Assembly (NCBI GenBank): GCA_903850275.1
Contig: CAINLH010000108.1
Span: 1 to 26,492, forward strand
Direction: 5' to 3'
Length of the DNA stretch: 26,492 nt
Source of the DNA: an uncultured Acidimicrobium sp.
GTDB lineage: Bacteria; Actinomycetota; Acidimicrobiia; Acidimicrobiales; Ilumatobacteraceae
This document shows, one piece after another, positions 22,036 to 26,492 of this stretch. Made by a program: the position numbers and the translations under genes. Position 1 is the first letter of the stretch; every line of letters begins with the position of its first letter. The notes beneath the pieces are model-generated. The model was not told the origin of the DNA, did no database searches, and worked only from the letters and a program-made list of their open reading frames with translations.

Positions 22036-23211
22036 ATGTCATCTTCGGTCGACATCCAACACCGCTTCCCCGGTTTGAACGGAGGTTGGGCTCGATTTGA
22101 CGGCCCAGCCGGAACCCAAATGGTCGATTCCGCACATCGTGCGATGACCGAATTTGCTAGCAGTGGCATCAACGCCAACACGGGTGGATACTTCGCCGCA
22201 GCAAACGAATGCGATGCGTTACTTGAACGCACACGCGGAGTGCTTGGCACTTTATTCGGCGCCAATCCAGAAGGCATTTGCTTGGGCGCAAATATGACCA
22301 CAATGACCATGGCCTTGACGCGTGCCATTGCGCGAACACTTAAGCCTGGAGACCGAGTCGTCGGCACCAAGCTCGATCACGACGCAAATGTTTCCCCTTG
22401 GAGAATTGCCTGCGAATTATCTGGTGCAGAACACGTACTTGCCCCATTCAACACCAGTACTTTCGAACTTGATACCGATGCAATGATTGCGCTCATCACG
22501 CCCAATACCAAGTGGGTTGCAATCACTGGCGCCTCAAACTTGTTGGGTACTGCACCAAATCTCAAACCAATCATCGATGCAGCGCACAACGTAGGCGCTC
22601 GTGTTTTTGTAGACGCAGTGCACCTCGCAGTGCACCGTCAAATTGATATTGGGCAGATTGGCTGCGACGTTCTCGCAACTTCTCCCTATAAGTGGTACGG
22701 CCCGCATGCGGGTGTTCGGTGTGTAGAGCCAGAATTACTCAATTCGCTGCCCGTTGCAAAAGTACGTCCTGCCAAAAACATCGGCCCGAGTCGTTTCGAG
22801 ACAGGAACACCCAACTTTGAAGGTATTGCAGCGGTGGAAGCCGCCGCGCGCTTTCTTATTGAAGAAGACATGAACAAAGTGGAGTCTTACGAAAACGGTA
22901 TTTTTCTGCCGTTACTCAATGGTTTGCAAAACATCGACGGAGTCAAAGTGTGGGGACGACCAACACTCGAAGGTCGTGTTCCAACAGTTTCGTTTACGAT
23001 TCAAGGCCACCGCCCCGATCACGTCGCCCAAGTGCTCGCACAGGCTCGAATTGCCGTGTGGTCTGGAAGTTCGTACGCCGTGGAAGCCGTCGATCAATTG
23101 GGCCTCACCGAATCGGGAGGCGTGGTTCGCGCGGGAGTCACCCGCTACGTATCTGCAAACGATGTTGATCGACTGCTTGAAGTAGTCACGTCGCTCGCGT
23201 CCAATCGTTAG
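22036..23211 (+). CDS. Class V PLP-dependent enzyme, cysteine desulfurase-like (TIGR01976-type by motif)
   Basis: FDGPAGTQ, LDHDANVSPW, VDAVH, SPYKWYGPH (PLP Lys), FETGT, RVPTVSF; no catalytic-loop Cys. Confidence 0.88.
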   Translation: MSSSVDIQHRFPGLNGGWARFDGPAGTQMVDSAHRAMTEFASSGINANTGGYFAAANECDALLERTRGVLGTLFGANPEGICLGANMTTMTMALTRAIARTLKPGDRVVGTKLDHDANVSPWRIACELSGAEHVLAPFNTSTFELDTDAMIALITPNTKWVAITGASNLLGTAPNLKPIIDAAHNVGARVFVDAVHLAVHRQIDIGQIGCDVLATSPYKWYGPHAGVRCVEPELLNSLPVAKVRPAKNIGPSRFETGTPNFEGIAAVEAAARFLIEEDMNKVESYENGIFLPLLNGLQNIDGVKVWGRPTLEGRVPTVSFTIQGHRPDHVAQVLAQARIAVWSGSSYAVEAVDQLGLTESGGVVRAGVTRYVSANDVDRLLEVVTSLASNR

Positions 23212-23236: not shown

Positions 23237-23309
23237 CGGGGAGTGGCGCAGTTGGTAGCGTGCCTGGTTTGGGACCAGGAGGCCGGGGGTTCAAGTCCCC
23301 CCTCCCCGA
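23237..23309 (+). tRNA. tRNA-Pro (anticodon TGG)
   Basis: Full cloverleaf: acceptor CGGGGAG/CTCCCCG, D-arm GCGC-AGTTGGTA-GCGT, anticodon stem CCTGG/CCAGG with TGG at 23270-23272, T-arm GGGGG-TTCAAGT-CCCCC; 3' CCA not encoded. Confidence 0.97.
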
Positions 23310-23337
23310 CAACTTTCTACCGAAATTTAAGGCTTTC

Positions 23338-23733
23338 ATGAACCACCCGATTGCGTCCGCAAAATATGTGTCGTTCGTGTCATACCGCCGTGATGGCACC
23401 CCTGTCGCAACCCCCGTCTGGATCGCCCCGTTGGGAAACGATTTTGGATTCACCATTGATAATGCGTCCGGCAAAGCCAAACGACTTGCGCACACCAATC
23501 GTGCAACCATTCAGCAATGCGACGTGAAGGGAAAAGTTGCAGAAGGAACGCCTGTGTATCTCTGCACCGCACGAGTTGTGCTTAATGGCGATGCCGAAAT
23601 TGTGCGCGACGCAGTCGCTAATAAATACGGGGTCACCTACAAAGTCTTTTCAATCTATTTATGGTTCACCGAACGTTTCGGAAAGAAGAAACACCAGCCA
23701 GAGACGGCAGTGATTGTCTCATTGGCTTCCTAG
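23338..23733 (+). CDS. PPOX-class probable F420-dependent oxidoreductase (Rv2061-like)
   Basis: SYRRDGTPVATPVW, SGKAKRL, QCDVKG, KYG motifs. Start at ATG 23338; the ORF-track extension runs through the tRNA. Confidence 0.85.
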   Translation: MNHPIASAKYVSFVSYRRDGTPVATPVWIAPLGNDFGFTIDNASGKAKRLAHTNRATIQQCDVKGKVAEGTPVYLCTARVVLNGDAEIVRDAVANKYGVTYKVFSIYLWFTERFGKKKHQPETAVIVSLAS

Positions 23734-23745
23734 CCTTCGCTGCGA

Positions 23746-25233
23746 TTAAGCCAACTCGCCCCGCGCAATGCTGTTACTCACGGCATTGACAAAATGACCC
23801 AGCGGCTGATCATGCTCGATCAGGGGAACGTACTTCCCTACAACATCAATCACTCTTTTTGCAGCCTTGCCCCGTTTAACTTCTGCGCGCAGACAAAGCA
23901 GTTGATGCGCAGTTACGGCTTCAATCGCCACTAGCTGTCGCAACCAGCCAATCTGTCGGCCCAGTTTTTCCACGACTAGCGGAAACTGCGATGCAACATC
24001 TTCAGCATTTTCAGAAATTGCAAAGAAGTCGAGACTTGCCGGATTGGCTTCAAATCGAACCCGCGTTGCCATTGCAACCGTCGACTTCATCAGAGCATTG
24101 AAGCCCACACTATGACCTTCGAGCGGCGCAAGGTATCGGGGAACCCCCTCAATGGTTCCGTTGGCCATTCTGATCGTTCGGTTGGCCGTCGCATTTGACC
24201 AGTGTGTAAGTGCAATAGAAAGCGCGTCTCCCGCTACGGACACCGCAAGCGATTGGAAATTGCTCGACGATCGGATTTGTCGTTTCTCTAGCAACACAAC
24301 TGGGTTGTCATTGCTCGAATTGCACTCTTGCTGCAGCAAATCCATAAACGATCGCGCATGGGTTTCCACCAAGGCCACCAGTGGAACAAGAGTTCGAAAC
24401 GAAAGCGCATGCTGGGCCTGATCAATCGCACCCTCTTCAAGCGTCCACGAACCGTGCAGCAAGTCCATGATCAATCGGCTTGCATCATCGCCTCCAGGGA
24501 CAGACTTTGTTGCCACAACTTCTGGCAGGAACGGCCCAGGGTTGACGCCATAGGCCTCGCACGATGCAACAGCAACCTGTTTCGCTGCAGCCAGGACAAC
24601 GCCCAACTCCGCGATTACTTCAACTGCGGCGGATTGCGTCACCGATCCGGAGTTCAGCAGGCCAAGCGCATCTTTTGCCGCAAGTTCGACCGGCTGCAAA
24701 TTGGCAGCACTCAGCGCGCTAAATGCAGAAACTCGTGTGCCCCGAAATGAAACGTCTCCAATGCCCAGCGCAGCAGCACACAATTGTGCACATTGGCCAA
24801 GATCGCTGGAGCCGACCGACCCAAGCGAAGCCACTACAGGCGTCAAACCCTTGTTGTACATTTCGACGAGTTGCTCGACAACATGCGGAGATACGGCCGA
24901 GTTGCCGTTGCACAAGTTCGCAATGCGAATACCTAGCGCACGTCGACTCACAGAATCTGGAAGGGGCTCCCCAATACCGATCATTCGCCCCTCGATCACC
25001 GATCTTTCAAAATCTGCAGTAGATCCGCGCTCCAGTTTCATTGACACGTTGGCCCCCAAACCAACATTCAGGCCGTAGACGGCAGAAGCTCCATCCAGAT
25101 GTTCATCAGCAATTTTTCGCGATTCGGCAATCCGCTTAACTGCGGCAGCAGTCAACTCAATCTGCGTGTCCAAGCTTCCTAACGCGATCAAATCGGCAAG
25201 CGCGAGGTGATTATCTCCAACAGTAATTTTCAT
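23746..25233 (-). CDS. Aromatic amino acid ammonia-lyase (HAL/PAL) family protein lacking the MIO tripeptide
   Basis: YGLNVGLG (HAL YGxxTGFG loop), GSVGSSDL (HAL GSVGASGDL), LGLLNS, LSFRT, NDNP, SSNF, NAEDVAS all map to HAL motifs. Not called hutH because the Ala-Ser-Gly is missing. Confidence 0.88.
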   Translation of the reverse strand: MKITVGDNHLALADLIALGSLDTQIELTAAAVKRIAESRKIADEHLDGASAVYGLNVGLGANVSMKLERGSTADFERSVIEGRMIGIGEPLPDSVSRRALGIRIANLCNGNSAVSPHVVEQLVEMYNKGLTPVVASLGSVGSSDLGQCAQLCAAALGIGDVSFRGTRVSAFSALSAANLQPVELAAKDALGLLNSGSVTQSAAVEVIAELGVVLAAAKQVAVASCEAYGVNPGPFLPEVVATKSVPGGDDASRLIMDLLHGSWTLEEGAIDQAQHALSFRTLVPLVALVETHARSFMDLLQQECNSSNDNPVVLLEKRQIRSSSNFQSLAVSVAGDALSIALTHWSNATANRTIRMANGTIEGVPRYLAPLEGHSVGFNALMKSTVAMATRVRFEANPASLDFFAISENAEDVASQFPLVVEKLGRQIGWLRQLVAIEAVTAHQLLCLRAEVKRGKAAKRVIDVVGKYVPLIEHDQPLGHFVNAVSNSIARGELA

Positions 25234-26246
25234 GAGTAACGCAATCTCTGGCCAACACCCATCTTCTTAGCCTTTGCAAGCATCGTATGACCAAGTGCAA
25301 TGTCGGAAAGCGACAGCCCACGATGCCAAAGCAGCGTTGTCTCATCGTCGGATTCTCGCCCGGTTTTTTTGCCGACAACAATCTCGCACAGCTCTCCGTG
25401 CAGACTTGTCTCGTTTAAAAGCCCAGCTTCAACGTGCGCGCGAAGCGAACCAAATTTGCCGCTCTTGCACTGCCCCCAATCATCGACCACCACTTTGTCC
25501 ATATTGGACAGCAAATCGATCTCTACGGCACTCATTGTCCCGTACGGCACAACAAATGCACCACGACCAATCCACTTCGTCTGCAGCATTGCCTCAGGCG
25601 CTGGCAATCGGGAAGCCTCTACAACGATGTCGGCTCCTTCAACGCAACTTTTCCAATCGGTTGTAACTCGCACAGGTTTGCCGAGGTCGTTGGAGAGTTT
25701 TTTTGCAAATGCCTCGCGACTTTCTGGACGAAGCGAATGCACCCGAATCTCATCAAAGTCAAATAAGTGATCAAGCAGTCGTACGTTCCAATACGCAGTC
25801 CCTCGAGCGCCAATGTGCCCCAAAACTTTGGAACCCTTTCGCGCAAGATGTTTGGCGCCTAGTGCAGTAATTGCGCCAGTGCGCATGTCCGTGAGGAACG
25901 ATGCGTCGATCACTGCTTTTGGCATTCCCGTGCGGCGATCCATCAAGTTGAGGAGGGCCAATTCGCTCGGGAGACCAGCCAAATAATTGTCGACAAAGTC
26001 CCCCACCACTTTGACGCCAGCCATGTCGATCGAACCACCAAGTGATCCGCGCAACACGTTGAAGTGGCCTTGCGAAACGCCTGGCTCCAGGTGGACTCGG
26101 GGCTCGATAACTGCCTCACCCATCCCCTGCAGCCGAAGGCCTTCTTCAACTGACTCAAGAATCTCGTCATTGCTTAATGAAAGTTTTTGCACGTCGATTC
26201 GGCTGAGATAGTCGATCCATGTTTCAGGAATTTCTTCGTTGCTCAT
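25230..26246 (-). CDS. Ornithine cyclodeaminase/mu-crystallin family protein
   Basis: GVKVV, TGMPKAVID, LTDMRTGA, Rossmann GHIGARGTA, ADIVV, VVDD, GRESDDE, GLSLSDIA. Start at ATG 26246, 1 nt after the upstream TGA. Confidence 0.9.
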   Translation of the reverse strand: MSNEEIPETWIDYLSRIDVQKLSLSNDEILESVEEGLRLQGMGEAVIEPRVHLEPGVSQGHFNVLRGSLGGSIDMAGVKVVGDFVDNYLAGLPSELALLNLMDRRTGMPKAVIDASFLTDMRTGAITALGAKHLARKGSKVLGHIGARGTAYWNVRLLDHLFDFDEIRVHSLRPESREAFAKKLSNDLGKPVRVTTDWKSCVEGADIVVEASRLPAPEAMLQTKWIGRGAFVVPYGTMSAVEIDLLSNMDKVVVDDWGQCKSGKFGSLRAHVEAGLLNETSLHGELCEIVVGKKTGRESDDETTLLWHRGLSLSDIALGHTMLAKAKKMGVGQRLRYS

Positions 26247-26247
26247 T

Positions 26248-26492
26248 TCAACCAATCCGATAGTCGTCTACGCGACTGGTGATTGCCTCTAAGACATCGG
26301 GCAATGGACGCACACCGATGCCCACCGTGTTCGGTACATCGATGTATCCATCTTTCAAAACGAATGGCTCGGTTACGTCTTGCACGAAGTAGCGATCGGA
26401 TGCGCTGGTGTCGCCTGGAAGTGTGAAGCCAGGCAGTGCAGCAAGCGCAAGGTTTGCAGCGCGGCCAATGCCGGTTTCCAACATTCCGCCAC
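26248..26492 (-). CDS. o-Succinylbenzoate synthase / N-acylamino acid racemase (enolase superfamily), 5' part outside window
   Basis: GGMLETGIGRAANLALAALPGFTLPGDTSASDRYF..D.TEPF...G...VP...G.GV closely resembles the C-terminus of Amycolatopsis-type OSBS/NAAAR (recalled, not searched). Confidence 0.85.
   Translation of the reverse strand, partial: GGMLETGIGRAANLALAALPGFTLPGDTSASDRYFVQDVTEPFVLKDGYIDVPNTVGIGVRPLPDVLEAITSRVDDYRIG

Follow-up and report, generated by a model that had tools for sequence, protein, structure and literature searches.

We analysed a window of 26,492 nucleotides that makes up the entire contig CAINLH010000108.1 of a 1.5-Mb, 88%-complete metagenome-assembled genome (GCA_903850275.1; uncultured Acidimicrobium sp., Ilumatobacteraceae), and focused on a gene on its reverse strand (23746-25233) encoding a 495-residue member (PF00221) of the histidine/phenylalanine ammonia-lyase (HAL/PAL) family devoid of the triad from which the 4-methylideneimidazole-5-one (MIO) cofactor forms. 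We reason, with a probability that we place at about 0.55, that its product would be a cytoplasmic, MIO-free C-alpha-N lyase of the HAL/PAL fold, predicted by sequence comparison to act on an N-substituted amino acid with a non-imidazole side chain. The gene is intact and under purifying selection, the protein belongs to a distinct and widespread clade without characterised member (hereafter the Arg83/Lys383 clade), and the lyase is genetically locked to a strongly conserved, atypical enzyme of the ornithine cyclodeaminase (OCD)/mu-crystallin family (54 of 80 loci).

The translated open reading frame (ORF) contains no internal stops, and its codons at 24799-24822 (reverse strand) read G138-S-V-G-S-S-D-L145 in place of the MIO-forming GSVGASGDL. 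In an alignment of 32 sequences (the lyase and 31 homologues) this loop falls short of the canonical GSVGASGDL/GSLGCSGDL by exactly one column and has Asp where Gly is expected, so that the initial annotation, made from the letters of the window alone, had read it correctly as one residue short of HAL. The translation likewise confirmed the two other motifs to which that annotation had drawn attention, namely the kept Tyr loop YGLNVGLGAN (residues 53-62) and the altered QHALSFR (residues 274-280; 24394-24414, reverse strand), in which the carboxylate-binding Gln274 and Arg280 are kept and Leu277 replaces HAL Tyr280. No missed codon that would restore Ser-Ser-Gly (a doubt raised at the outset) was found: contigs from three DNA metagenome runs (three studies: 2015, 2018 and 2024) and from one metatranscriptome cross 24799-24822 without indel or substitution, and the loop-bearing stretch is present almost word for word in at least 14 freshwater or unspecified metagenome runs from 6 studies, the three just named among them. 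Seven relatives from other assemblies carry GS[VI]GSSDL, and the ratio of non-synonymous to synonymous substitution rates (dN/dS) between the lyase and relatives with 85-90% identical proteins, all of which keep this loop, lies at 0.08-0.10. Since contigs of independent runs are free of indels (and relatives share the loop) and dN/dS is of this order in an intact frame, both an assembly or sequencing error at the loop and a pseudogene can be ruled out. No trace of the decay that had been considered for the homologues was seen, and the absence of the X-Ser-Gly triad holds at the level of sequence, in independent assemblies too.

PF00221 covers the lyase from end to end (E 3.4e-97, model positions 1-464 of 466), and the protein scores far below every cut-off of the NCBIfam models for HutH, PAL, TAL and aminomutases (TIGR01225, HutH: 259.5 bits vs a cut-off of 539). 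Its best PDB match by sequence is the ergothionase 6s7j (E 5e-51). An AlphaFold2 model built on a 58-sequence alignment reached a mean predicted local distance difference test score of 91.4, and Foldseek placed 6s7j first (template modelling score, TM, 0.95; root-mean-square deviation 2.1 A; 23% identity), followed by the Pseudomonas putida HAL 1b8f (TM 0.93). The claim that the enzyme is not HutH is thus sustained by a clade without MIO triad whose nearest solved relative is a MIO-independent ergothionase, and the modelled fold (the initial annotation had proposed a structure model of the pocket) is closest to that same MIO-less structure.

The alignment with 6s7j (whose chain numbering is the published ergothionase numbering minus one) runs without gaps through the loop (SVGSSDLG vs SIGEGDIT). 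Tyr53 (codon 25075-25077, reverse strand), the conserved catalytic base (HAL Tyr53, ergothionase Tyr54), is invariant in all three alignments, and the lyase retains the carboxylate site (Asn194, Gln274, Arg280), Phe326 and Glu411 (Glu412 in Treponema denticola ergothionase). By alignment, Arg83 (24985-24987, reverse strand) occupies the imidazole-binding His position (HAL His83, ergothionase His84), which we take to be a known selectivity switch of the family (HAL His83, RsTAL His89); the exchange probably favours a different side chain, presumably an anionic or hydrogen-bond-accepting one. Lys383 (24085-24087, reverse strand) aligns without gaps with ergothionase Lys384, which serves as thiolate ligand (bioRxiv 10.64898/2026.04.22.720169). 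The residue roles used here for ergothionase and the Shewanella lyases are those given in two preprints (bioRxiv 10.1101/2025.08.13.670108 and 10.64898/2026.04.22.720169).

Key-position residues were tabulated across a 200-sequence family alignment, which combined database matches with the lyase ORFs of 80 genomic loci and a near relative's paralogues; a FastTree phylogeny was built from it. All 118 sequences with Arg83 fall into one clade (support 0.999) that holds no non-Arg member, and every one of them lacks the MIO triad, has the shortened loop and carries Lys383, Leu59 and Leu, Ile or Val at position 277, while Tyr53, Gln274, Arg280, Phe326 and Glu411 are kept. The window lyase bears the clade signature YR.Q[LIV]RFKE. 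In the same alignment the canonical HALs have His83, Tyr277, Phe59 and either Tyr or Val at 383; position 83 is His in 97% of the MIO-bearing HALs vs Arg in 118 of 118 clade members, and position 59 is Phe in 98% of HALs vs Leu throughout the clade. Ergothionase-type sequences (His83 and Lys383, e.g., with the loop GSIG-EGDIT) fall outside, on the HAL side of the tree, as do the other His83 MIO-less types. The phylogeny that had been suggested for this protein hence sets it in a clade of its own, apart from both HALs and ergothionase-type sequences. One earlier idea had to be abandoned: it had been suggested that the Ser-Ser-Asp loop may define a new specificity, and the loop is rejected as a specificity motif because the two former Ser-Gly positions vary freely within the monophyletic clade (AG being commonest, then SS, AA, TS, TG, GG, AS, SG and DG). 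The residues that define the clade in the alignment are Arg83, Lys383, Leu59 and Leu/Ile/Val277, and the database labels 'histidine ammonia-lyase' and 'aromatic amino acid lyase' attached to its members are almost certainly wrong.

The strongest functional clue for the lyase is its conserved OCD partner. A scan of 185,579 species (one genome each) matched 439 stretches, of which 434 were confirmed as relatives; the best 80 were fetched, and all neighbourhood counts refer to these 80 loci. They derive from Ilumatobacteraceae, other Acidimicrobiia and many Alpha- and Betaproteobacteria (the Proteobacteria including Bosea, Mesorhizobium, Labrys, Acidisoma, Ancylobacter, Tianweitania, Phyllobacterium and Rhodoferax). 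As shadow ORFs polluted the greedy ORF maps of the high-GC loci, these maps were replaced by a codon-position GC filter before neighbours were counted. In the window the atypical OCD/mu-crystallin gene (25230-26255, reverse strand; PF02423, E 1e-50, full length; the true start may be the ATG at 26246) lies upstream of the lyase, and its stop overlaps the lyase start by ATGA. A gene of the same subfamily was found within 8 kb of the lyase in the 54 loci mentioned above (Actinomycetota, Alpha- and Betaproteobacteria). Five genomes without OCD in the fetched locus were checked, and four of them carry a 66-72% identical OCD elsewhere or just beyond the flank. In the fifth (locus L030), only short OCD fragments were found (C140:28813-29001(-); 38 residues at 71% identity and 27 residues at 63%), perhaps because the gene has decayed or because the record is incomplete.

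Conservation is much stronger in the OCD partner than in the lyase: OCD identity is 63-72% from the window to Proteobacteria (lyase 31-37%) and 70-94% among Proteobacteria (lyase 41-84%). Put differently, lyases that share only 31-65% of their residues have OCD partners that are 63-86% identical. Its non-canonical motifs are kept across 56 homologues, namely GARGTAYWN, which replaces GxGxQA in the nucleotide loop, PYGTMSA, which replaces GADxPGK, and LLWHRGLSLSDIALG, and the C-terminal motif WHRGLSLSD is conserved across the 56 partners as well. The protein reaches none of the NCBIfam equivalog cut-offs. Among solved structures it is closest to the Archaeoglobus fulgidus alanine dehydrogenase 1omo, the Pyr2C reductase 6t3e and SbnB 4m54 (E 2e-42 to 4e-31), and the nearest Atlas clusters bear automatic SbnB-type names. 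With these three structures it shares PF02423 over its full length and the motifs of the substrate-carboxylate Lys and Arg, which are retained, whereas PYGTMSA in place of GADxPGK, the GARGTA Gly-rich loop and the WHRGLSLSD C-terminal motif set it apart from them.

Because the window is a complete contig, the operon is truncated within it. Upstream of OCD only the last 80 codons remain of a gene of the OSBS/NSAR type (o-succinylbenzoate synthase/N-succinylamino acid racemase; enolase superfamily; 26248-26490, reverse strand), cut by the contig end and 96% identical to residues 288-367 of a relative's gene; the ORF at 26243-26491(-), considered as the upstream gene, was discarded as being in the wrong frame. 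A full-length NSAR homologue scores 311 bits against TIGR01928 (cut-off 200). In Ilumatobacteraceae relatives the order is GNAT-NSAR-OCD-lyase, a four-gene operon with overlapping stops and starts, and 3-5 kb upstream there is a divergent ABC importer of the Dpp/Opp type. The product of the first gene (241-251 amino acids) has no Pfam match, and a protein atlas places it among GNAT acyltransferases (score 0.98). The combination of GNAT and NSAR follows a known logic for the conversion of D-amino acids via N-succinyl intermediates (the Geobacillus pathway). Contigs from a freshwater metatranscriptome are 99-100% identical to the genes for lyase, OCD and racemase (23714-26485), which suggests in situ expression of this region, although DNA carry-over in the library may account for the match. 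Of the words sampled from 23714-26485, 28-36% occur in five other RNA libraries, four of them riverine and one marine.

Outside the lyase-OCD pair, the shared theme of the neighbouring genes is uptake and C-N chemistry on N-substituted compounds, followed by enoate metabolism. The most frequent neighbours are TOBE-type ABC ATPases (30 loci), SBP_bac_5 binding proteins (peptide/opine/nickel-type) with permeases (25 loci), PhnD-like binding proteins (13 loci), LysR regulators (9 loci) and paired C-N-cleaving FMN monooxygenases of the NtaA/DmoA family (8 loci). A CoA ligase, an enoyl-CoA hydratase, and hydroxyacyl-CoA and acyl-CoA dehydrogenases accompany the lyase in 5-6 loci (Rhodoferax and relatives), OsmF-like glycine-betaine-type binding proteins in 5 and GbcA-like Rieske oxygenases (N-demethylase-type) in 4, and a 610-residue Amidohydro_3 hydrolase of the D-aminoacylase type stands directly upstream in a single locus (Acidisoma, L024:6150-7982(+)). 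Several Betaproteobacteria show a minimal arrangement that comprises the lyase, OCD, LysR and an importer of the Dpp type. The PDB relatives of the neighbouring binding proteins were of generic peptide/opine/nickel type only and gave no clue to the ligand. In Aureimonas, a membrane fatty-acid desaturase is encoded directly upstream of the clade member (L056:5910-6992(+)).

We reason that catalysis would begin with Tyr53 abstracting the beta-proton of the substrate, upon which a substituted amine instead of ammonia would be expelled from C-alpha, with a trans-enoate as product. As leaving group we envisage a quaternary or N-alkyl/N-carboxyalkyl amine, considering that an alkylated or quaternary nitrogen departs more readily, as in the trimethylammonia-lyases; alternatively, an electron-withdrawing group on the beta-carbon (e.g., a carboxylate held by Arg83 and Lys383) may open an aspartase-like E1cB (unimolecular conjugate-base elimination) route that dispenses with MIO. 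The substrate itself is predicted to be an alpha-amino-acid derivative whose non-imidazole side chain, probably anionic or hydrogen-bond-accepting, would be held by Arg83 and Lys383. OCD would carry out an adjacent C-N redox reaction with NAD(P), be it an imine reduction, an oxidative deamination or a cyclodeamination, and in Ilumatobacteraceae GNAT and NSAR probably feed a D-form or N-acylated compound into the lyase-OCD pair.

Several points weigh against this proposal. The placement of Arg83 and Lys383 in the side-chain pocket comes from alignment to HAL and ergothionase, i.e. from sequence. The OCD partner would act on either the substrate precursor or the released amine, its role and its order in the pathway being predicted, and its use of the cofactor is not certain, given that the GARGTA loop and the PYGTMS motif are non-canonical. 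The neighbourhoods beyond the lyase-OCD pair are heterogeneous and indicate no single compound, and the linkage with GNAT and NSAR could be explained by synteny alone, since both genes are confined to one family. Finally, in the literature searched, which omits most subscription journals, we found no characterised clade member and no paper on the Arg83-type clade or on its pairing with OCD.

Knowing the identity of the substrate would reveal a specificity new to the fold, perhaps its first non-aromatic one, would assign a function to the OCD subfamily, and would show what the abundant freshwater Ilumatobacteraceae, with their streamlined genomes, draw from dissolved organic nitrogen. To our knowledge, MIO-less HAL/PAL members were long known only as ergothionases. 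Preprints of 2025-2026 have extended the known MIO-less HAL-family lyases from ergothionase to histidine-betaine and N(pi)-methyl-histidine-betaine lyases (bioRxiv 10.1101/2025.08.13.670108, 10.64898/2026.04.22.720169). The Arg83/Lys383 clade is a third MIO-less group besides ergothionases and histidine-betaine lyases, larger, monophyletic and present in streamlined freshwater Actinobacteria too.

The likeness to the ergothionase of T. denticola (6s7j/6s7q) is extensive: both have the PF00221 fold without MIO, a loop of the same length, the Tyr base and the Gln/Arg carboxylate site, and they share Leu for HAL Tyr280 (QDPLSFR in ergothionase), Lys at 383/384 and Glu at 411/412. The ergothionase differs in His84, its imidazole N-tau ligand, where the lyase has Arg83; the lyase lies in a separate clade and is accompanied by OCD, not by ergothioneine-catabolic or reductase genes. 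Shewanella Swoo_3913 (histidine betaine lyase) and SO_3299 (N(pi)-methyl-histidine-betaine lyase) are likewise MIO-less PF00221 proteins with a conserved Tyr base, which they use to eliminate a substituted amine; they are periplasmic and bind imidazole through His and Glu, the residue that corresponds to Lys384 is Asn or Gln in them, and their coupled enzymes are flavocytochrome enoate reductases (bioRxiv 10.1101/2025.08.13.670108, 10.64898/2026.04.22.720169). In contrast, the lyase has no signal peptide (as judged from inspection of its N-terminus), carries Arg83 and Lys383 and is coupled to OCD. Since the imidazole-binding His83 is replaced by Arg, we regard it as neither an ergothionase nor a histidine-betaine lyase. 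With HutH (P. putida 1b8f) it shares the fold and the equivalents of Tyr53, Asn, Gln277, Arg283, Phe329 and Glu414, and differs by the lack of Ala/Cys-Ser-Gly, by four replacements (His83 to Arg, Tyr280 to Leu, Phe59 to Leu, and Tyr to Lys383) and by the lack of hut genes nearby.

Histidine catabolism was considered separately. The window's genome encodes urocanase (hutU), split over two contig ends (C4:1-573(+) and C269:4-438(-)), and in this 88%-complete assembly neither a canonical HutH nor any PF00221 gene besides the lyase was found. A search of three Ilumatobacteraceae-type relatives showed that two encode a canonical HutH (620 and 612 bits) together with a paralogue corresponding to the window lyase and a further PF00221 paralogue; the third carries the window-lyase paralogue and one weaker PF00221 match (265 bits). 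In the near relative, whose lyase is 89% identical and which has a complete 2.0-Mb contig, a canonical HutH with the loop GSLGCSGDL, His83 and Tyr277 is encoded by a gene of its own, and the window lyase is therefore a paralogue with a different role. An incomplete assembly is the best explanation for the gap in the window's genome, because relatives carry canonical HutH and the urocanase is split at contig ends; on these grounds, and given the 88% completeness, we rejected the notion of a lyase standing in for HutH as the main interpretation. A third PF00221 paralogue of the near relative (L096:6794-8212(+); contig C1, about 1238793-1240211), with acyl-CoA-type genes nearby, has the MIO-less loop GAVG-TGEIT, His83, Phe277 and Tyr383, and falls outside the Arg83 clade.

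Among the other explanations, a trimethylamine-releasing lyase for a non-imidazole amino-acid betaine, with OCD processing a precursor or side product, would be a special case of the lyase proposed here, and we deem it possible though unlikely. It would agree with an ergothionase as closest solved structure (loop length, Leu277 and Lys383 being held in common) and with the OsmF-like binding proteins and GbcA-like Rieske demethylases that adjoin some clade members, and all characterised MIO-less members are trimethylammonia-lyases (bioRxiv 10.1101/2025.08.13.670108, 10.64898/2026.04.22.720169). However, betaine-type neighbours occur in only about 9 of the 80 loci, the commonest importer being of the peptide/opine/nickel type; no trimethylamine-handling genes were seen in the loci, and the elimination of trimethylamine would leave the conserved OCD partner without an obvious job. 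If, instead, the elimination were aspartase-like, the enzyme would convert an N-substituted aspartate or some other amino acid bearing an electron-withdrawing group at the beta-carbon; Arg83 and Lys383 would stabilise the aci-carboxylate, MIO would be unneeded, and fumarate would be formed together with an amine or amino acid, which OCD would then oxidise or cyclise. We consider this rather improbable, even though the longer, cationic Arg in place of His83 and the invariant Lys383 would give a contracted cationic pocket, and the minimal LysR-lyase-OCD-Dpp importer operons hint that no more than two enzymes are needed to arrive at central metabolites. The NtaA-family monooxygenases and opine/nickel-type binding proteins resemble the loci for catabolism of aminopolycarboxylates (ethylenediaminetetraacetate, nitrilotriacetate, ethylenediaminedisuccinate), which we count in its favour, as we do the SbnB-type names near OCD (oxidative cleavage of a secondary amine) and the presence of alanine dehydrogenase and SbnB among the solved relatives. 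Yet it is drawn from two residues and a heterogeneous context, no natural substrate offers itself as a candidate, and the invariant Glu411 would sit near the anionic group. Equally doubtful is a wider proposition, namely that an Arg83/Lys383 lyase and a PYGTMS-type OCD form an undescribed two-enzyme route for C-N cleavage on N-substituted acidic amino acids, in which the lyase would eliminate in aspartase-like, cofactor-free fashion from opine-like or aminopolycarboxylate compounds or from N-alkyl-aspartates and -glutamates, and OCD would handle the second C-N bond oxidatively. If true, it would take the HAL/PAL fold to substrates other than aromatic and imidazole ones and add a new catabolic pathway.

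Two further explanations were weighed. That the protein is no lyase at all (i.e. a pseudoenzyme, a scaffold or regulatory subunit of OCD, or another catalyst such as an isomerase or mutase) seems very unlikely to us: the far stronger conservation of OCD, the fast evolution of the lyase and its variable former cofactor loop speak for it, but Tyr53, Asn194/Gln274/Arg280, Phe326 and Glu411-Asp412 are invariant across phyla in the alignments, and dN/dS is about 0.09. We give the least credence to an ergothionase or hercynine lyase proper, which would feed (thio)urocanate into histidine-type catabolism. The best PDB match, the alignment of Lys383 with the thiolate-binding Lys384 and the urocanase without canonical HutH in the window's 88%-complete genome would fit such an enzyme; the N-tau ligand His84, however, is Arg in 118 of 118 clade members (the preprints cited above report His as kept in the Shewanella betaine lyases as well), and sequences that do combine His83 with Lys383 lie outside the clade. 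Moreover, neither the window nor the annotated clusters of recurrent neighbours contained a thiourocanate hydratase or a urocanate reductase, and the missing HutH has, as said, its best explanation in the incompleteness of the assembly.

Profile matches of the window's proteins bore out the earlier statement that no hut genes are present in it; the remaining genes are housekeeping (CoxE/MoxR, MurJ, ProB, Obg, RNase E/G, RodA, PBP2, MreBCD, Ndk, FolC, ClpXP and Tig). Two genes converge on that of the lyase, one encoding a cysteine-desulfurase-like class-V aminotransferase (22036-23211(+); TIGR01976, 357 bits) and the other a small PPOX-class F420-dependent oxidoreductase (23260-23733(+); TIGR03666), and both are syntenic in Ilumatobacteraceae relatives. 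Within the wider family, a metagenomic protein of 706 amino acids combines an ergothionase-type HAL-family region (no MIO, His83, Lys383) with a fused cyclic-nucleotide-binding domain (PF00027).

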